From an uncultured Oscillospiraceae bacterium (GTDB taxonomy: Bacteria; Bacillota; Clostridia; Oscillospirales; UBA644), in contig CAYUWC010000003.1 in the NCBI GenBank assembly GCA_964448355.1, positions 16,983 through 80,982 on the forward strand: a DNA stretch of 64,000 bases, given 5' to 3'. Below are positions 5,036 through 42,493 of the stretch, one piece after another (position 1 is the first letter of the stretch; each line of letters begins with the position of its first letter). The translations under genes were made by a program, and so were the position numbers. The notes under the pieces are model-generated. The model saw nothing but the letters and a program-made list of their open reading frames with translations. It was not told the origin of the DNA and made no database searches.

Positions 5036-8000
5036 TCAAATAATTATTTCGCCGTCGAATATTTTGTTTGCGTCGCCCGTCATAAAAATGTTTTCGTCGG
5101 TGTAAGTAACTTTAAGATCGCCGTTAAACAGTTTTACGGTGATCTCCTCGCCCTTACGGCAAAAACCGTTTTCGCAAGCCGCAACGACAGCTGCGCATGC
5201 ACCCGTGCCGAACGAGCCTGTTTGACCGCAGCCGCGCTCCCAAGTACGTATCTTTATCGTTTTTTCATCGATTATCTGAACGAACTCGGCATTGATACGC
5301 TCCGGGAATTTTTCGTAATTTTCAAAGCACGGACCGATCTTTTGAACATCGAGCTTATCGACGTTTTTAACAAAAACTATACAGTGCGGGCCTTCGATAC
5401 CGACGCAGGTAATATTGTAATTTTCGTCGCCGATATTAACAAGGCGATCAACGACCTCTCCGCCGCTGAAATTAACGGGGATCGATGCAGGCGTAAGCGT
5501 AGCCTTGCCCATCTCGACACGTGCCGAAGATACCTCTTTGTTATGAACAAACAACTTGATCTTCTTTATGCCGCACACTGTCTCGACGGTAAGATCTTTT
5601 TTGTCCGTCATATGATTATCGTAAAGATATTTTCCCACGCATCTGACGGCATTGCCGAACATCTTGCTTTCACTGCCGTCTTTTTTGAACATACGTATCT
5701 TAACGTCTGCTTTGTCGGACGGGCATATAAGGACGACACCGTCGCCGCCGACGCCCGTATGTCTGTCGGAATAACGGACGGCAAGGCCTTCGGGGTTGTT
5801 TATTTTTTGATCAAAACAATTGAAATATATATAATCGTTTCCGCAGCCTTCCATTTTCGTAAAGCGAAGCTTCGTTCTTTCGGTACGCATTCTGTTGATA
5901 TCGACAAGCTCTATCGACATTTCGGAGTACTTACTCTTCAAGCTTTGCGCAAGCGCTCTTGCGGTATCGATCGATGTAAGGCACGGAATTGAGCGTTCGA
6001 CGGTCTTTCTTCTTATTTTAACGCTGTCTCTGGACGGAATACGACCTTTGGAAGATGTTGAAATAACATAATTTATCTTTCCGCTTTCAAGGAGCGTGAT
6101 GGTGTTTTCGTCGCTTTCGTGTATTTTATCGACGACGGTCACGGGTGTGCCGCCCTTGCTGATAACGTTTGCCGTTCCGCGTGTGGCATAGATCGAAAAA
6201 CCGAGATCACTGTAGCTCTTTGCGAGATCGGCGACTTCGGATTTATCGCTGTCACGAACGGTGATCATTACGCCTCTCGATCTTTTCATATTGTAGCCTG
6301 CGGCGATAAGACCCTTGTAAAGGCTTTCCTCCATCGTTCCGGCAATACCGAGAACTTCGCCGGTACTCTTCATTTCGGGACCGAGATGGTTATCGACATC
6401 GGCAAGTTTTTCAAACGAGAATACGGGGACTTTGACCGCAACATACGGAGACGAGGGATAAAGCCCCGTGCCGAAGCCCATATCTTTCAGTTTTTCTCCG
6501 AGCATAGCTCTCGTTGCCAGATCTACCATCGGAACGCCCGTAACTTTTGTTATATACGGAACGGTTCTTGACGAACGGGGATTTACCTCGATAACGTAAA
6601 GATCGTTTTCGTAAATAAGATACTGGATATTTATAAGGCCTCTTGTGTTAAGATCCACGGCAAGCTGTTTTGACGCAGACACTATCTTTTCCGTCAGTTC
6701 GTCGGAAACATTCCAAGCCGGGTACACTGCGATAGAGTCGCCGGAATGCACGCCTGTTCGCTCGATATGTTCCATAATACCGGGGATAAGAATATCCTCG
6801 CCGTCGCACACAGCATCGACTTCAAGCTCGATACCCATAAGATATTTATCGATAAGAACGGGATTTTCGATATTGTGCGACAAAATTATACTCATATATT
6901 CGACGATATCGCTCTCGCTAAACGCAATTATCATATTTTGACCGCCCAAAACATACGACGGACGCATCAAAACCGGATAGCCTATTTTTTGTGCGACCGC
7001 AAGTGCTTCTTCGGTCGTCATAACAGTATCGCCGACGGGGCGTTTGATATGATATTTTTCGAGAAGTGCGTCAAAACGTTCTCTGTCCTCGGCGGCATCG
7101 ATACTGTCGGCAGATGTGCCTATGATCTTCACACCCGCCTTATCGAGGAAATTCGTAAGTTTGATCGCTGTTTGTCCGCCGAAAGCGACAACTGCGCCGA
7201 ACGGTTTTTCCGTTTCGATAACGTTCATAACGTCTTCCGGTGTGAGCGGTTCGAAATACAGACGATCGGCAGTGTCAAAGTCGGTAGAAACGGTTTCGGG
7301 ATTGTTGTTTACAATAACGACCTCATAGCCGAGCTTTTTCAGCGATCGGCAGCAGTGTACGGACGCATAGTCGAACTCTATACCCTGACCGATACGAATG
7401 GGACCTGCGCCGAAAACAAGGACCGTCTTTTTATCGGTGGAATGTTCGTTTTTAAAGCGGAGAGCTTCGTTGTCGTCATCGTATGTCGAATAAAAATACG
7501 GCGTTTCGGCGGCAAATTCCGCAGCACACGTATCGACCATTTTAAACACGGCGGAGCGGTGGATATTAAGCTTTGTGCCGGTCAGCTGTTCGATAACGTG
7601 ATCGGGATAGCCGAGTTTTTTTGCTTCGAGATATTTTTCGTCATCGATACCCGACGCAAGTTCGGTTTCAAATTTTACAAGTTTAAGGAATTTGTTAAGG
7701 AACCATTTGTCGATCTTCGTTGCGGCATATACATCGTCAACGGATACGCCTCGCTTAAGCGCCTGATAAACAACAAAGAGACGTTCGTCGTCGCAATTGT
7801 TGAGCCGCTCACGGATCTCGGCGTCGGAAAGTACGGCAAGCTTGGGAGAATTAAGGCTCGACAGCGAGATCTCCGCGCCTCTGACGGCTTTCATTATCGC
7901 CTGTTCAAAACAAGTACCGATAGCCATTACTTCGCCCGTTGCTTTCATTTGCGTGCCGAGAGTACGTTTTGCGTAAACAAATTTGTCGAACGGCCACTTC

Positions 8001-9073
8001 GGTAATTTAACAACGATATAGTCGACCGTCGGCTCAAAACAAGCCGATGTTTTTTTAGTGATGGCGTTGGGTATTTCGTCAAGATTATAACCTACGGCTA
8101 TTTTTGACGCGACCTTTGCTATCGGATAACCCGTTGCTTTCGAAGCAAGTGCGGAAGAACGCGAAACACGGGGGTTGACTTCGATTACGGCGTATTCAAA
8201 GCTGTTGGGATTAAGCGCGAACTGAACGTTACAGCCGCCGTTGACTTTAAGTTCGGAAACGATGCTGAGAGCTGCGGTCTTGAGCATCATAAACTCTTTT
8301 GTCGCCAACGTGACCGCAGGAGCAACAACTATACTGTCTCCGGTATGAACGCCTACGGGGTCTACGTTTTCCATACTGCACACGGTAATAACGTTGCCGG
8401 CACTGTCGCGTATAACCTCAAATTCGATCTCTTTCCAACCGGACACACATTTTTCGACGAGGATCTGGTTTATGGGAGAAAGACGGATACCGTTTGACGC
8501 GATCTCGCGAAGCTGTTCTTCATCCTGTGCGATGCCGCCGCCGGTACCTCCGAGAGTGAATGCGGGGCGGATTATCAAGGGATAGCCTATTTCGCTCGCA
8601 AACTCTATTGCCGATTCGAGATCTGTAACGACTTTCGAAGGGATACAAGGCTGCCCTATTTTGAGCATTGTGTCTTTAAACAGCTGTCTGTCTTCGGCTT
8701 TATCTATAGTTTCGGGGTCCGCACCGAGAAGACGAACGCCCATTTTATCGAGAAAGCCCTCTTTTGCAAGCTGCATAGACAGGGTAAGCCCCGTTTGTCC
8801 GCCCAATGTTGACAACAGCGAATCCGGACGTTCTTTTTCGATTATTCTTTTAATAACAGGTATTGTGAGCGGCTCGATGTATATTCTGTCCGCCATTTCT
8901 TTATCCGTCATTATCGTTGCGGGATTTGAGTTAACAAGAACGACTTCTATACCCTCTTCTCTGAGCGCTCTGCAAGCCTGTGTTCCGGCATAGTCGAATT
9001 CCGCCGCCTGACCTATTACGATAGGTCCCGAACCTATAACGAGCGTCTTTTTTATCGATCTGTCAAGAGGCAT
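5036..9073 (-). CDS. carB: Carbamoyl-phosphate synthase large subunit fused in frame to a C-terminal DapF-like (diaminopimelate epimerase fold) module
   Basis: 1345 aa, against about 1070 for CarB. There are two ATP-grasp halves (GPIVIGQAAEFDYAGTQA and GPIRIGQGIEFDYASVH) and an MGS-like allosteric tail. The ORF then continues without a stop into KLRFTKMEGCGNDY...ERGCGQTGSFGTGACAA. Confidence 0.9.
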   Translation of the reverse strand: MPLDRSIKKTLVIGSGPIVIGQAAEFDYAGTQACRALREEGIEVVLVNSNPATIMTDKEMADRIYIEPLTIPVIKRIIEKERPDSLLSTLGGQTGLTLSMQLAKEGFLDKMGVRLLGADPETIDKAEDRQLFKDTMLKIGQPCIPSKVVTDLESAIEFASEIGYPLIIRPAFTLGGTGGGIAQDEEQLREIASNGIRLSPINQILVEKCVSGWKEIEFEVIRDSAGNVITVCSMENVDPVGVHTGDSIVVAPAVTLATKEFMMLKTAALSIVSELKVNGGCNVQFALNPNSFEYAVIEVNPRVSRSSALASKATGYPIAKVASKIAVGYNLDEIPNAITKKTSACFEPTVDYIVVKLPKWPFDKFVYAKRTLGTQMKATGEVMAIGTCFEQAIMKAVRGAEISLSSLNSPKLAVLSDAEIRERLNNCDDERLFVVYQALKRGVSVDDVYAATKIDKWFLNKFLKLVKFETELASGIDDEKYLEAKKLGYPDHVIEQLTGTKLNIHRSAVFKMVDTCAAEFAAETPYFYSTYDDDNEALRFKNEHSTDKKTVLVFGAGPIRIGQGIEFDYASVHCCRSLKKLGYEVVIVNNNPETVSTDFDTADRLYFEPLTPEDVMNVIETEKPFGAVVAFGGQTAIKLTNFLDKAGVKIIGTSADSIDAAEDRERFDALLEKYHIKRPVGDTVMTTEEALAVAQKIGYPVLMRPSYVLGGQNMIIAFSESDIVEYMSIILSHNIENPVLIDKYLMGIELEVDAVCDGEDILIPGIMEHIERTGVHSGDSIAVYPAWNVSDELTEKIVSASKQLAVDLNTRGLINIQYLIYENDLYVIEVNPRSSRTVPYITKVTGVPMVDLATRAMLGEKLKDMGFGTGLYPSSPYVAVKVPVFSFEKLADVDNHLGPEMKSTGEVLGIAGTMEESLYKGLIAAGYNMKRSRGVMITVRDSDKSEVADLAKSYSDLGFSIYATRGTANVISKGGTPVTVVDKIHESDENTITLLESGKINYVISTSSKGRIPSRDSVKIRRKTVERSIPCLTSIDTARALAQSLKSKYSEMSIELVDINRMRTERTKLRFTKMEGCGNDYIYFNCFDQKINNPEGLAVRYSDRHTGVGGDGVVLICPSDKADVKIRMFKKDGSESKMFGNAVRCVGKYLYDNHMTDKKDLTVETVCGIKKIKLFVHNKEVSSARVEMGKATLTPASIPVNFSGGEVVDRLVNIGDENYNITCVGIEGPHCIVFVKNVDKLDVQKIGPCFENYEKFPERINAEFVQIIDEKTIKIRTWERGCGQTGSFGTGACAAVVAACENGFCRKGEEITVKLFNGDLKVTYTDENIFMTGDANKIFDGEIII
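5039..5872 (-). other. DapF-like module (278 aa) of the CarB fusion; both catalytic Cys positions are Phe
   Basis: Aligns end to end with E. coli DapF (GNDF-like GNDY, NADGSE-like KKDGSE, ERGAGET-like ERGCGQT, GxGACA). Codons 5657-5659 and 5210-5212 read TTC on the coding strand where DapF has Cys73 and Cys217. Confidence 0.8.
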
Positions 9074-10147
9074 TTATCTCACCTTCGCTTTCATCATATT
9101 TTCCGTAAATTGTTTCCAAACAAAGCCCGTGTCGTTCGGGCCCGATATCGTTTCGGCACGGAACTGAACGGAAAAGACCGGCTTGTCCGTAAAGTCGATG
9201 CCTTCGCAGGTATTATCGTTTAAATTTTTGTATGTCATCGTGATATTTTCCGGAAGCTCCGAAGCGTCAACGGCATATCCGTGATTTTGGACCGTGATAT
9301 GCGTTTTCCCGGTTTGAGTGCAAATGATCGGGTGATTTGCACCTCTGTGGCCGTATTTGAGTTTAACGGTTTTACAGCCTGCGGCAAGCGCGATGATCTG
9401 ATGACCGAGACCTATACCGAGCATGGGTTTGCCGCTTTCCAAAAGTTTTTCGATCTGAGCCGTGATCTCCGTATTTTCCGTCGGGTCGCCGGGACCTTCC
9501 GTTAACATAACACCGTCAGGCGCCATTGCAAGGACGTCTTCGGCACTTGTTAGTGCAGGTACGACCGTAACATTGCAGCCGAGTGCATTAAGCTCTTTTA
9601 CCGCATTGCCGACAGCGCCGAGATCGTACACAACGACGGAGCAATTCGCGTTTTCGACGTTAAAATGATAGATCTTTTGGGTCGTTGTCTGCCGAACGGC
9701 GTTTTCGATCTTATAATTTTTCAGTTCTTCAAGGTCGCATTGAGGGGTCTTTGAAATTTTCGCGTTCATTACGCCGTTTTCACGAATGATACGTGTAAGG
9801 GCGCGAGTATCAAGGTCGCATATGCCGATTATCCCCTTATTTAACAAAAAGGTGGAAAGATTACCTTCACATCTGAAATTTGAAGGATCTTCACACCATT
9901 CTCGAACAATATAAGCTTTTAATTTAGGAGAAGAATCTCCGATCTCCTCGGAAATCATTCCGTAATTTCCTATAAGGGGAAAAGTTTGCATTACGATCTG
10001 ACCGAAATTACAAGGGTCGCCGAGAGTTTCGGAATAGCCGACAACACCTGTTGTAAAAACAAGCTCGCCGACAGTTTCTCCGGATGCGCCGAAAGCTCTG
10101 CCCGCAAAGACAGTTCCGTTTTCAAGAATCAAATAAATCCTGTCCAT
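9074..10147 (-). CDS. carA: Carbamoyl-phosphate synthase small subunit homolog with degenerate glutaminase triad
   Basis: Start chosen at MDRIYLILENGTVFAGRAFG, which has GGAGAG as RBS. The CarA N-domain and GATase fold are conserved. The motif reads GIGLGHQ instead of GICLGHQ, and VQFRAE instead of FQGHPE. Confidence 0.88.
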   Translation of the reverse strand: MDRIYLILENGTVFAGRAFGASGETVGELVFTTGVVGYSETLGDPCNFGQIVMQTFPLIGNYGMISEEIGDSSPKLKAYIVREWCEDPSNFRCEGNLSTFLLNKGIIGICDLDTRALTRIIRENGVMNAKISKTPQCDLEELKNYKIENAVRQTTTQKIYHFNVENANCSVVVYDLGAVGNAVKELNALGCNVTVVPALTSAEDVLAMAPDGVMLTEGPGDPTENTEITAQIEKLLESGKPMLGIGLGHQIIALAAGCKTVKLKYGHRGANHPIICTQTGKTHITVQNHGYAVDASELPENITMTYKNLNDNTCEGIDFTDKPVFSVQFRAETISGPNDTGFVWKQFTENMMKAKVR

Positions 10148-10319
10148 ATATAGCTCTCCTAACATATAAAATAATCTTGAACCGCTTTTTCCGATGCAAC
10201 TGCACAATTGCCGCTATTATATAATTGATGCAATTCACATAATTGCGCAGAAAAAAAGGCGCTCACCGGGCGTATGACAGACAGCCACACAACCGACAAA
10301 CGCCCTTGTCTAAATTGAT

Positions 10320-10348
10320 ATTATACATTATTTTACAGTCCTTGTCAA
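10320..10348 (-). promoter_or_regulatory. Sigma-A type promoter of carA (TTGACA-17-TATAAT)
   Basis: On the minus strand: ttgaca aggactgtaaaataatg tataat. This is a perfect consensus, about 165 nt upstream of the carA start. Confidence 0.6.
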
Positions 10349-27571: not shown

Positions 27572-27577
27572 AAAAGA

Positions 27578-27757
27578 AAACTTCGGGGTAGGGTGAAATT
27601 CCCTGACCGGTGGTTACAGCCCACGAACCTGTTTTTACAGGCCGAAACGGTGAGATTCCGTTGCCGACGGTACAGTCCGGATGGCAGAAGATATTGCGGC
27701 GCAGCTGCGTCTTATTATGCGAAAAAGTTCCCGAATAACGGGAACTTTATTTTTTTT
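27578..27757 (+). promoter_or_regulatory. FMN riboswitch (RFN element) with intrinsic terminator
   Basis: cttcggggtagggtgaaattccctgaccggtgg...ggtgagattccgttgccgacggtacagtccggatggcagaagat matches the RFN core. The terminator is aaagttcccg/cgggaacttt plus T8, at 27724-27757. Confidence 0.9.
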
Positions 27758-27800: not shown

Positions 27801-28062
27801 GAATATCTGTTTTACGCATAGATCCACCGTAAAACGGTTCCCGACAAGTTTTTGCCACCAAGCGTTTGCCGCAACACGACTGGGTGAATTTTATTAACTT
27901 TATATTCCGTCGCCATGACTGCGGAATAGCGATTACGAAAAAACAGTACGAAATTTAATGATTCGCAAATGGAAAGATTATCTGCCTCACGCATAAATCC
28001 ACCGTAAAACGGTACCCGACAAGTTTATGTTCGCCGCAGAAGAATTTAATTAACTTTTTATA
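27801..28062 (+). repeat. ~175-bp tandem duplication between the riboswitch terminator and ribU
   Basis: The unit atctg..acgcata(g/a)atccaccgtaaaacggt(t/a)cccgacaagttt...gaattt(t)a(a)ttaactt(t)t(t)atat occurs at 27801-27905 and 27977-28062. Confidence 0.75.
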
Positions 28063-28073
28063 TGGAGGTTGTT

Positions 28074-28736
28074 ATGAATATTAAAATAACACATTTGATC
28101 ATTGCGCTCACGGCGTTATTCATTGCCGTGCTGATCGTTGTGACGACATTGGCAATAAAAAAACGGAAAAAGACAGCGATAACAAGCAAACGTTCCGTCA
28201 AACAACTGGCAACTTTAGGTGTTATGTCTGCATTAAGCATAGTTTTGATGATCTTAATACGTGTACCGTTCCCGACGGCGCCGTTTCTCGAATACGACCC
28301 CGCAGACGTCCCGATACTGATCTCGACGTTTTTGTTCGGACCGTGGTGGGGTTTGTTAATGACGGCGGTCGTAAGCGTTATTCAAGGAATAACGGTAAGC
28401 ACGTCGAGCGGTATTATAGGCATTATAATGCACATCACGGCGACAGGCGGTTTTGTTTTGTCGGCAGGGGCGATATACAAACGAGGCAAAAGCATGAAAA
28501 GAGCGATCGCGGCTCTCGTGTGCGGCTCCGTTGTTCAGACGATACTTATGGCGGGAATGAATCTTGTGTTAACACCTGTTTTCATGAACACTCCGCTTCA
28601 AACCGTGCTCGGCATGATGATCCCGACTATAATCCCGTTTAATCTTATAAAAGCGGGGTTGAACGCAGTGATAACGTTTTTTGTTTACAAATTCGTATCC
28701 AAAACCGTTTCAAAAATCTTCGATCAAACGGCTTGA
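28074..28736 (+). CDS. ribU: Riboflavin transporter, ECF S-component RibU
   Basis: GGAGG lies 5 nt upstream of ATG 28074. It is a polytopic protein (LEYDPADVPILISTFLFGPWWG) downstream of the FMN riboswitch. Confidence 0.8.
   Translation: MNIKITHLIIALTALFIAVLIVVTTLAIKKRKKTAITSKRSVKQLATLGVMSALSIVLMILIRVPFPTAPFLEYDPADVPILISTFLFGPWWGLLMTAVVSVIQGITVSTSSGIIGIIMHITATGGFVLSAGAIYKRGKSMKRAIAALVCGSVVQTILMAGMNLVLTPVFMNTPLQTVLGMMIPTIIPFNLIKAGLNAVITFFVYKFVSKTVSKIFDQTA

Positions 28737-39542: not shown

Positions 39543-42493
<2,951 letters not shown>

Follow-up and report, generated by a model that had tools for sequence, protein, structure and literature searches.

The window (the whole 64-kb stretch of DNA that was analysed) carries two abutting minus-strand genes for the subunits of a carbamoyl phosphate synthetase (CPS): a carA homolog whose product has a degenerate glutaminase site, and a carB gene fused to a DapF-like domain (Table 1). 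The TAA stop of carA runs directly into the ATG of carB, as it does in all loci of the clade referred to below as clade A.

Table 1. Features of the carA–carB locus (window coordinates; CarA and CarB reference positions in E. coli numbering).
Feature	Position	Strand	Basis
carB fused to DapF-like domain, 1345 aa	5036..9073	−	ATG directly after carA stop (TAAATG)
DapF-like C-terminal domain of CarB	5036..5872	−	alignment to solved DapF 2otn_A; 76 fusion proteins compared
F1288 at second DapF catalytic Cys position	5210..5212	−	2otn_A alignment
F1139 at first DapF catalytic Cys position	5657..5659	−	2otn_A alignment
CarB Thr258 codon at Asp258 position	8300..8302	−	alignment
carA homolog, CPS small subunit, degenerate glutaminase site, 357 aa	9074..10147	−	Pfam, NCBIfam, E. 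coli CarA alignment, AF2
Arg330 codon CGT at catalytic base His353 position	9158..9160	−	alignment; codon read directly
Gly246 codon GGT at catalytic nucleophile Cys269 position	9410..9412	−	alignment; codon read directly
Glu217 codon at Asn240 position, adjoining oxyanion-hole Gly241	9497..9499	−	alignment
Cys46 codon at substrate-contacting Ser47 position; next Asn47 replaces Tyr48	10010..10012	−	alignment
Promoter-like TTGACA-17-TATAAT, then leader hairpin with U-run, upstream of carA	10250..10348	−	−36.7 kcal/mol, z −4.3

Gene products and genomic context

The CarA homolog has the two-domain architecture of the small subunit, an N-terminal CPSase_sm_chain domain (Pfam, 153 bits) and a class-I GATase domain (135 bits), and scores above the curated cut-offs of both NCBIfam PRK12838 (386.6 bits, cut-off 221) and TIGR01368 (382 bits, cut-off 307). 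The start codon was assigned to the ATG at 10145-10147, which is preceded by AGGAG and is used in all homologs, rather than to an upstream TTG. The promoter-like and leader element is conserved in clade-A loci only, and the leader gave no match in Rfam. An AF2 model of CarA (pLDDT 88.3) retains the GATase alpha/beta fold, as the earlier note had proposed. Its best Foldseek match was E. coli CarA (1a9x_B, TM 0.87), followed by CPS1 and then by GuaA and TrpG-type GATases.

CarB is a full-length duplicated ATP-grasp synthetase of the TIGR01369/PRK05294 type (1482 bits versus PRK05294), and its core is under very strong constraint (dN/dS about 0.02). The carboxyphosphate-domain residues Arg129, Arg169, Glu215, His243, Gln285, Glu299, Asn301 and Arg303, which we take from the E. 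coli literature to be catalytic, are all conserved in the CarB alignment. A CarB segment of the window scored 189.1 bits against CPS1 and 187.1 bits against E. coli CPS. Its C-terminal domain matches TIGR00652 (247.5 bits), and Phe occupies both positions of the DapF catalytic pair (Cys73 and Cys217 in H. influenzae/E. coli numbering). The first of these is Phe in all clade-A relatives, and DapF catalytic Cys is lost in four of the five lineages that combine a CarA lacking Cys269 (a “dead” CarA) with the fusion. The fusion itself was considered as a correlate of dead CarA and rejected, because it occurs in all 77 related loci, canonical ones included. A search of the window and loci with a Ddh query sequence gave no match, a tentative negative.

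A tblastn search of the 64-kb window with E. coli CarA returned this carA as the sole match and no second carA. The pair is the counterpart of the one carA-carB(DapF) locus seen throughout the 77 related loci, and is best explained as the housekeeping operon of an uncultured Oscillospirales bacterium from gut or rumen.

The CarA active site and its conservation

CarA positions are given in E. coli numbering, from a phmmer alignment to E. coli CarA (1t36_B, 1c30_B). The catalytic triad Cys269-His353-Glu355 is represented here by Gly, Arg and Glu, so that only Glu355 is kept, and the nucleophile elbow reads G-I-G-L-G rather than G-x-C-x-G. The alignment thus agrees with the earlier note, which had reported the loss of the triad Cys and His. 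The note had also stated that a QGHPE motif differs at three of five residues. All 180 canonical relatives have Q-F-H-P-E, with Phe already standard in place of Gly; His-to-Arg and Pro-to-Ala therefore stand as changes specific to this CarA, and Gly-to-Phe does not. No alternative Cys/His pair was found at the triad positions in a structure-aware match of the AF2 model to E. coli CarA (TM 0.87). With nucleophile and base both absent, the proposal that this protein probably cannot hydrolyze glutamine is supported at the level of sequence.

Changes extend beyond the triad. Ser-Tyr at positions 47-48 is invariant in the 180 canonical relatives, and Cys-Asn is fixed in the 15 clade-A sequences used (15/15; the outlier P0014 retains Ser-Tyr). 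Ser47 of E. coli CarA reportedly contacts the bound glutamine or thioester (Thoden/Holden and Huang/Raushel work). A literature search on the role of Ser47 and of CarB Asp258 in E. coli yielded nothing usable. Position 240, Glu here, is Asn in 47 of 51 canonical representatives and Asp or Glu in 43 of the 93 representatives without Cys269. Val replaces both Lys202 and Thr37, and Thr replaces Ala356, again at sites invariant among canonical relatives. Former pocket residues Gly241, Gln273, Asn311, His312 and Tyr314 are unchanged. Because these old residues are invariant and Cys47, Asn48 and Glu240 are newly fixed, the site appears still to do something beyond a purely structural role. Note that the changes at Ser47, Tyr48, Asn240, Lys202, Thr37 and Ala356, like the widespread recurrence of the loss, had been overlooked in the earlier note.

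Loss of the triad is common to clade A, a clade of uncultured Oscillospirales (61-100% identity) that was mapped in species-representative genomes. The losses recur among 15 cluster representatives and at six genomic loci from different samples. The Gly substitution proved to be conserved (14 of 15 representatives, with Ser in the remaining one), whereas the Arg was not: the His353 position is R, K, H, N or V, and so looks relaxed. One subclade keeps His353. All six clade-A carA genes for which DNA was available are gapless with 357 intact codons, and dN/dS is about 0.1 (0.05-0.18). The window CarA also occurs as an identical protein on an independent Logan contig. The recurrence of the losses in gapless genes under this constraint excludes chance or sequencing error, the latter having been judged unlikely from the start.

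Selection on CarA differs between its domains. For the least saturated pair (dS 0.33-0.49), dN/dS was 0.107 in the GATase domain and 0.029 in the N domain. At a CarB identity of 0.88-0.92, GATase domain identity is 0.60-0.71 in clade A, compared with 0.77 on average and never less than 0.70 in canonical pairs (n=152). At equal CarB divergence the CarB-docking N domain evolves as it does in canonical relatives, in line with its reported conservation; only the GATase domain is faster. Purifying selection with relaxation limited to the GATase domain fits a CarA retained as a structural or allosteric subunit, as had been suggested.

Recurrence of the loss and the CarB partner

Cys269 is absent from 93 of the best 150 cluster representatives (50%-identity clusters). 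Independence of the losses was judged on a CarB tree, a neighbor-joining tree of the cluster representatives having been rejected because long branches distort it. Cys269 was lost independently in at least four or five lineages, among which L061, L077 and L095 have L052, L049 and L089, respectively, as canonical nearest neighbor or sister. Two dead carA genes lie within biosynthetic operons, that of L097 in argH-argC-argJ-argB-argD-argF-carA-carB and that of L096 in pyrC-pyrF-carA-carB-pyrK-pyrD; given this context, the related dead carA genes are taken to serve biosynthesis. Gly241, Gly243, Leu270, Gln273, Asn311, His312, Gly313 and Tyr314 are conserved in the sampled dead lineages, and retained in most, not all, of the 93 representatives (Gln273 is kept in 58 and lost in 35). 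Position 47 is A, S, N, T, G or R in most dead lineages, and more distant representatives bearing Cys47 have also lost Glu355. Every named member that was looked up is publicly annotated as carbamoyl-phosphate synthase small subunit, mostly as “glutamine-hydrolyzing”, and the literature that was searched described no dead CarA from a bacterium. Canonical relatives inhabit the same rumen and gut habitats as clade-A bacteria, so habitat alone does not explain loss of the glutaminase.

CarB position 258 is Asp in E. coli and in all 67 canonical relatives, but six of the seven lineages with a dead CarA have another residue there (T, T, A, S, S or P); P0095 and P0118 were left out of this comparison because their contigs stop before residue 258. 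A salt bridge between CarA Lys202 and CarB Asp258 was rejected as the cause of this co-variation, since L061 and L077 keep Lys202 without Asp258. In its GATase relaxation and its loss of Asp258, clade A resembles lineages that offer no candidate thiol.

Interpretation and comparison with known systems

On the evidence of the genes, we think it probable that the locus encodes a bacterial CPS that, like CPS I, depends on ammonia, and in which CarA is retained as a subunit with no catalytic role. Because the Cys and His are lost, CarA is still under selection and the loss is found in many related lineages, carbamoyl phosphate is probably made from free ammonia. Lacking the Cys269 thiol and the His353 base, CarA would form no gamma-glutamyl thioester and so would be unable to release ammonia from glutamine. 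It would still be made together with CarB, because the genes abut, and its N-terminal domain, whose rate of evolution is normal, would still provide the docking contact with CarB. The intact CarB would then make carbamoyl phosphate from bicarbonate, two ATP and the free ammonia of an ammonia-rich habitat. CarA may play a stabilizing or allosteric role, and ammonia may enter by the vacated pocket and the old tunnel, of which the gate residues Cys232, Ala251 and Ala314 are kept. Such an enzyme would be, in effect, a two-subunit bacterial counterpart of vertebrate CPS I. The ammonia dependence that the earlier note had put forward with a “may” gains support, by inference, from the intact and constrained CarB, the loss of Asp258 and the dead carA genes in arg and pyr operons. 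Note that the Km of E. coli CPS for ammonia is poor and that no adaptation raising ammonia affinity was identified here, which we count against this reading. The shared habitats of the canonical relatives and the old and new invariant residues of the pocket count against it as well. In its favor, glutamine hydrolysis requires both Cys269 and His353 (review PMC6245113), ammonia supports the activity of E. coli CarB by itself, and CPS I owes its ammonia dependence to a dead glutaminase domain (PMC8121099; PMC4655335).

It is unlikely that another CarA of canonical type, or a whole additional CPS, encoded elsewhere in the genome sustains glutamine-dependent synthesis while the dead CarA acts as a specialized or regulatory, paralog-like partner. 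The genome was seen over 64 kb only, in some Oscillospirales (L096) the pyr operon encodes a CPS of its own, with a CarB that lacks the DapF domain, and bacteria with two CPSs, Bacillus for example, are well known (PMC8121099). Nevertheless, the window holds no second carA, its abutting genes match the single locus of the 77 related ones, and CarB itself carries the change at Asp258 specific to dead lineages. Moreover, the pyr-operon carA of L096 is dead too, and the dead carA of L097 is the arg-operon copy. Somewhat less probable still is a ligand-binding pseudoenzyme, in which the CarA pocket still takes up glutamine, or a different nitrogen metabolite, and so serves as an allosteric sensor tuning an ammonia-using CarB. 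Conservation of the eight pocket residues in the sampled dead lineages and a GATase-domain dN/dS of only about 0.1 would suit such a sensor, as would the E. coli Cys269Gly and Cys269Ser enzymes, which reportedly still bind glutamine (a result attributed to Rubino and colleagues in 1986). However, pocket-flanking Ser47 and Asn240 are replaced, Gln273 is gone in more than a third of the dead representatives, and the conserved motifs may reflect only the fold and the tunnel.

We regard as very improbable a relocated nucleophile, whereby Cys47 (Cys46 here) extends from the N-terminal domain into the pocket and takes over from Cys269, a rebuilt catalytic set thus preserving glutaminase activity. 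The fixation of Cys-Asn in clade A at sites invariant in canonical relatives, the reported substrate contact of Ser47 and the His353 of one subclade speak for it. Against it, the base position is variable in the clade, the distant Cys47 representatives are also without Glu355, most dead lineages have other residues at 47, and clade A shares its GATase relaxation and Asp258 loss with thiol-less lineages. As for a pseudogene in decay, or an artefact of assembly or sequencing, the missing catalytic residues are all that would suggest one. The intact frame, the identical protein on an independent contig and the conservation of the clade over many samples at a dN/dS well below 1 have already refuted it, and its probability is negligible.

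A broader version of the ammonia-dependent reading is possible but tentative: gut and rumen Oscillospirales may repeatedly have turned a glutamine-dependent CPS into a CPS-I-like one within a coordinated biosynthetic switch to ammonia, with the pocket rebuilt rather than decayed and with CarB Asp258 as a residue coupling CarB to a working glutaminase. The rebuilt pocket is suggested by the fixation of Cys47, Asn48 and Glu240 in clade A and by the recurrence of Asp or Glu at 240 across lineages; it may recruit ammonium or sense a ligand. The coordinated switch is suggested by the paired losses in CarA and the DapF-like domain, which mirror the pairing of carAB/dapLF versus CarB2/Ddh in Bacteroides.

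Textbook accounts deny that bacterial CPS enzymes make carbamoyl phosphate from free ammonia. According to a functional-genomics paper of 2021, all eubacterial CPSs studied up to then were glutamine-dependent, and prokaryotic ammonia-dependent CPSs were restricted to Archaea (PMC8121099). The window and at least 93 divergent protein clusters point to a large, unrecognized set of bacterial CPSs with a pseudo-glutaminase subunit. If this is true, models of how abundant rumen and gut Clostridia metabolize nitrogen would have to change, the losses would amount to an evolutionary experiment that nature has repeated, in parallel with the emergence of vertebrate CPS I, and CarB Asp258 would be a specific, testable candidate for the long-studied coupling of glutaminase and synthetase sites.

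Compared with E. coli CarAB (EC 6.3.5.5), the window CarA-CarB has the same architecture and fold, and its CarA naturally carries the substitution of the laboratory Cys269Gly mutant. The Cys269Gly, Cys269Ser and His353Asn mutants are said to lose glutamine-dependent synthesis and keep ammonia-dependent synthesis (in work credited to Rubino et al. in 1986 and Miran et al. in 1991). Unlike these mutants, the natural variants are further remodelled in CarA (35-37, 47-48, 202, 240 and 356) and in CarB (258, 262, 265, 278 and 340), and have been maintained by selection over long divergence.

Vertebrate CPS1 (EC 6.3.4.16) also has a CarA-derived glutaminase-like part that is present but dead, with Ser at the nucleophile position where the window CarA has Gly, and uses free ammonia (PMC4655335). 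Like the window CarB, CPS1 has no acidic residue at the Asp258 position (Asn in the human enzyme, with Val at the Glu278 position). In contrast, CPS1 is one fused polypeptide that needs N-acetylglutamate, whereas the window CPS, known from its genes alone, consists of two subunits with a stop codon between the genes and has a DapF-like domain fused to CarB. Pseudo-amidotransferases, which are dead class-I GATase homologs, resemble the window CarA in keeping the GATase fold and losing the nucleophile-elbow Cys; the examples found are viral or eukaryotic (PMC7605207).

In the gut anaerobe Bacteroides thetaiotaomicron, the orphan CarB2 (BT3866) is proposed to make carbamoyl phosphate directly from ammonium, carAB operating with dapLF when ammonium is low and CarB2 with Ddh when it is high (PMC8121099). 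As a parallel to this pairing, the window has CarA and the DapF-like domain both inactivated, as judged by their catalytic residues, in one operon. CarB2 lacks a small subunit altogether, whereas the window CPS retains its own as an apparent pseudoenzyme.

The carA homolog, its catalytic triad and its conservation

By homology and domain architecture the window protein is a member of the CarA family. Its two Pfam domains, CPSase_sm_chain (153 bits) and GATase (135 bits), are both CPS small-subunit domains, and it scored 386.6 bits against PRK12838 (curated cut-off 221) and 382 bits against TIGR01368 (curated cut-off 307). Translation was taken to begin at the ATG shown in the table, with AGGAG just before it; a TTG at 10207, given by a mechanical ORF list, was rejected because all homologs begin at the ATG.

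Features of the window, with positions and the basis of each assignment
Feature	Position	Strand	Basis or detail
carA homolog, 357 residues	9074-10147	-	Pfam CPSase_sm_chain and GATase, NCBIfam
carA start codon ATG	10145-10147	-	start of all homologs
Gly codon GGT at Cys269 position	9410-9412	-	codon read and alignment
Arg codon CGT at His353 position	9158-9160	-	codon read and alignment
carB, 1345 residues	5036-9073	-	
Thr codon at CarB residue 258	8300-8302	-	
DapF-like domain of CarB	5036-5872	-	TIGR00652; alignment to DapF 2otn_A
Phe codons at both DapF catalytic Cys positions	5657-5659, 5210-5212	-	alignment to solved DapF 2otn_A
carA promoter and leader hairpin	10250-10348	-	
Glutamate dehydrogenase gene	39543-41045	-	ELFV_dehydrog
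FMN riboswitch	27575-27696	+	102 bits
ECF-type riboflavin transporter S component	28062-28736	+	

When aligned to the solved E. coli CarA with phmmer, the nucleophile elbow reads P-M-L-G-I-G-L-G-H-Q (E. coli, P-V-F-G-I-C-L-G-H-Q) and the C-terminal motif F-S-V-Q-F-R-A-E (E. coli, F-S-F-Q-G-H-P-E), with Glu355 kept. Codon reading placed the Gly and Arg exactly where the earlier note had them. That note also counted three changes in the QGHPE motif, and here His to Arg and Pro to Ala proved specific, whereas Gly to Phe is the normal state of the family (Q-F-H-P-E). No other Cys/His pair occupies the triad positions, either in this alignment or after superposition of an AlphaFold2 model (40 sequences in the input alignment; mean pLDDT 88.3) that matches E. 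coli CarA at TM 0.87 and, next, the N-terminal part of human CPS1. Because this confident model superposes on E. coli CarA, the alignment is not masking such a pair. Judged by its sequence, the protein lacks the catalytic hallmark that defines both glutamine-hydrolysing CarA and the class-I amidotransferases.

A search of a 5.8-billion-protein collection recovered clade A, the window's CarA and its close uncultured relatives, as 15 cluster representatives (61-100% identity). All 15 lack Cys269, with Gly in 14 and Ser in one. The Arg at residue 353 is not fixed to the same degree: the subclade of the window has Arg or Lys, another subclade has His, and two outliers have Asn or Val. Canonical Ser47/Cys269/His353/Glu355 is found in the 105 matches that follow (~58% identity, mostly labelled Ruminococcus), save proteins P0095 and P0118. 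Sequencing error had been thought unlikely, and this view was upheld by the clade-wide loss of Cys269, by an identical protein on an independent Logan contig, and by the clade carA genes with DNA, which are gapless and 357 codons long in six of six cases. Triad loss is a conserved state rather than an accident.

Values for dN/dS were calculated by the Nei-Gojobori method. Those for whole carA were 0.05-0.18 over all pairs; in the least saturated pair (loci L011/L012, dS 0.33-0.49) they were 0.029 for the N-terminal domain and 0.107 for the GATase domain, and the CarB core gave ~0.02. CarA identity was also compared with CarB identity across locus pairs. For CarB identities of 0.88-0.92, GATase-domain identity was 0.60-0.71 in eight clade-A pairs versus a mean of 0.773 (minimum 0.697) in 152 canonical pairs, while the N-terminal CarB-docking domain was normal (0.79-0.84 versus a canonical mean of 0.825). 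Constraint has therefore been relaxed only on the catalytic domain, which is still far from neutral.

Clade A was compared with 180 canonical relatives at sites where these reach 90% conservation or more, and the pocket proved to have been remodelled. Replacements fixed in clade A are Gly at residue 35 (canonical Ala, E. coli Ser), Val at Met36, Ile or Val at Thr37, Cys at Ser47, Asn at Tyr48, Glu at Asn240, Gly at Cys269 and Thr at Ala356. Positions 202, 268, 353, 354 and 358 vary within clade A, and the hallmark motifs G-L-G-H-Q, Q-N-H-G-Y and Q-F-x-x-E are intact. From structural work on E. coli CarA, we take Ser35, Met36 and Ala309 to line the ammonia tunnel and Ser47 to contact bound glutamine or the thioester.

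Recurrence of Cys269 loss and genomic context

Three further lineages with dead CarA (that is, without Cys269) were found among 80 loci from species-representative genomes, including L061 (Ser/Gly/Asp/Asp at residues 47/269/353/355) and L075/L077 (Thr/Gly/Tyr/Glu). P0095 and P0118 were added by protein search; the nearest neighbours of all of these are canonical, at ~70% CarA identity. In a neighbour-joining tree of CarB, a protein that evolves slowly, dead-CarA loci have canonical sisters in three cases (L077-L049, L061-L052 and L095-L089), and clade A, L093, L097 and L096 form separate deeper branches. Therefore, Cys269 has been lost independently at least four or five times.

HMMER was run in full against 1.84 billion representatives of clusters at 50% identity. 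Among the 150 best, 93 lack Cys269 (Gly 78, Asp 6, Asn 3, Ser 3, Ala 2, Phe 1), a lower bound on divergent clusters and not a frequency, because relatives of a dead query rank higher. Residue 353 has no consensus in these 93, and Ala, Ser, Cys, Asn, Thr, Gly or Arg stands at residue 47; 269, 353 and 355 are invariant in the 51 canonical representatives. Named Cys269-less members are MAG proteins of Ruminococcus sp., Oscillospiraceae or Clostridia bacteria. Note that public annotation calls all of them (P0002, P0009, P0010, P0286, P0287, P0295 and P0306) carbamoyl-phosphate synthase small subunit, mostly “glutamine-hydrolyzing”, a homology-based label that the residues read here contradict.

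In the window the carB ATG directly follows the carA stop codon. The dead carA of L097 closes argH-argC-argJ-argB-argD-argF, directly before carB, and that of L096 lies within pyrC-pyrF-carA-carB-pyrK-pyrD. By their operon positions these CPSs belong to the arginine and pyrimidine pathways and are no relics. The dead carA of L095 has a type III glutamine synthetase gene (5592-7682) as its divergent neighbour. Glutamate dehydrogenase, encoded in the window, is a low-affinity route of ammonia assimilation; its gene is compatible with an ammonia-rich lifestyle, yet too common to count as evidence.

Upstream of carA, a near-perfect putative promoter (TTGACA-17-TATAAT) precedes a leader hairpin and U-run that look like a terminator or attenuator. 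The leader, whose 5' hairpin arm GGGCGTTTGTCGG is invariant, occurs in all clade-A loci, is absent from the other loci compared (L013-L092), and gave no Rfam match. A response-regulator gene whose product has an ANTAR domain, which binds RNA, lies directly upstream of carA in L007 (9374-9940) and L092 (461-1036), relatives with canonical carA (L007/L008) or the Cys269Ser variant P0118 (L092); clade A has the hairpin leader there instead. The FMN riboswitch of the window lies upstream of the riboflavin transporter gene.

The CarB partner

CarB residues Asp258, Gln262, Arg265, Glu278 and Gly340, invariant in 67 canonical relatives and E. coli, are respectively Thr, Met, Lys, Asn and Lys in clade A. 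Residue 258 is also Thr in L061, Ala in L075/L077, Ser in L093 and L095, and Pro in L097; the pyr-operon CPS of L096 keeps Asp. Asp258 is thus replaced in 6/7 dead-CarA lineages versus 0/67 canonical loci (Fisher p = 4e-8, which counts lineages against loci and overstates independence; three events have canonical sisters). Ammonia-dependent human CPS1 has Asn at the equivalent of 258 and Val at that of Glu278. Conserved residues are Cys232, Ala251 and Ala314, which we take from E. coli to be the tunnel gate, and Arg129, Arg169, Glu215, His243, Gln285, Glu299, Asn301 and Arg303 of the carboxyphosphate domain, presumably catalytic as in E. coli. We infer that Asp258, a candidate coupling residue, matters only with a working glutaminase attached, for coupling or ammonia hand-over; in that case, losing it would independently indicate that CarA-derived ammonia is no longer used. 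No discussion of Asp258 in this role was found in the literature within reach. The CarB of L075 has a frame break near residue 224 (around 2461), probably an assembly error; 99%-identical L077 is intact.

Window CarB ends in a DapF-like domain (247.5 bits). The fusion (1343-1369 aa) occurs in 77/77 related Oscillospirales loci examined (L002-L097), including Ruminococcus albus, Pseudoruminococcus and Sporobacter termitidis; a link to dead CarA was ruled out because canonical loci carry it too. The pyr-operon CarB of L096 (1064 aa) is without it, and a literature search found no paper describing the fusion. Other clade-A genomes have Phe at the first DapF catalytic Cys only, versus both in the window. 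Four of the five fusion-bearing dead-CarA lineages lack the first Cys, versus 7/67 canonical loci (p = 0.0015, overstating independence, as lineages are counted against loci). Despite the missing Cys, a dN/dS of 0.01-0.06 indicates very strong purifying selection on what is, by its residues, an apparent second pseudoenzyme in the operon.

Probable ammonia use and comparison with known systems

E. coli CarB reportedly makes carbamoyl phosphate from ammonia in vivo, to go by the title of Rubino et al. 1987. Glutamine hydrolysis via the thioester requires Cys269 and His353 (PMC6245113), CarB of E. coli functions by itself as an ammonia-dependent CPS (PMC8121099), and in CPS1 ammonia dependence results from replacement of the catalytic Cys, with external ammonia probably taking a different way in from the ancestral tunnel (PMC4655335). 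Because of these findings, the best-supported reading is a two-subunit, CPS-I-like, ammonia-dependent bacterial CPS, which we consider probable, with CarA kept as a surviving non-catalytic partner of a CarB that would use ammonia.

The main rival, in which the genome encodes another canonical carA or another CPS at a different locus, seems unlikely; the 64-kb window holds no second carA. A ligand-sensing role for the conserved CarA pocket is somewhat less likely still, and largely overlaps with ammonia dependence. Relocation of the nucleophile to the Cys47 of clade A is very improbable: base position 353 is not conserved, more distant Cys47-bearing representatives lack Glu355 too, position 47 is not Cys in most dead lineages, and clade A shares its relaxation pattern and CarB signature with lineages without a candidate thiol.

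Within our literature search, with most subscription journals outside its scope, no description of dead CarA subunits in bacteria was found, and every eubacterial CPS yet studied is reported to depend on glutamine (PMC8121099). A dead bacterial CarA would contradict this textbook generalisation, is widespread in an important habitat, and yields sharp experiments. Returning to the ammonia-dependent reading, the closest functional parallel of window CarA would be the N-terminal part of CPS I. It falls outside the CPS I family, since it is a separate subunit and has Gly where CPS I has Ser at the nucleophile position. Among bacteria, the closest precedent is an orphan subunit, CarB2 of Bacteroides thetaiotaomicron, proposed to be ammonium-dependent; in Bacteroides, carAB is paired with dapLF when ammonium is low, and CarB2 with Ddh when it is high (PMC8121099). 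Loss of catalytic Cys from both CarA and the DapF-like domain echoes this pairing and raises the hypothesis of a coordinated shift to ammonia-based biosynthesis.
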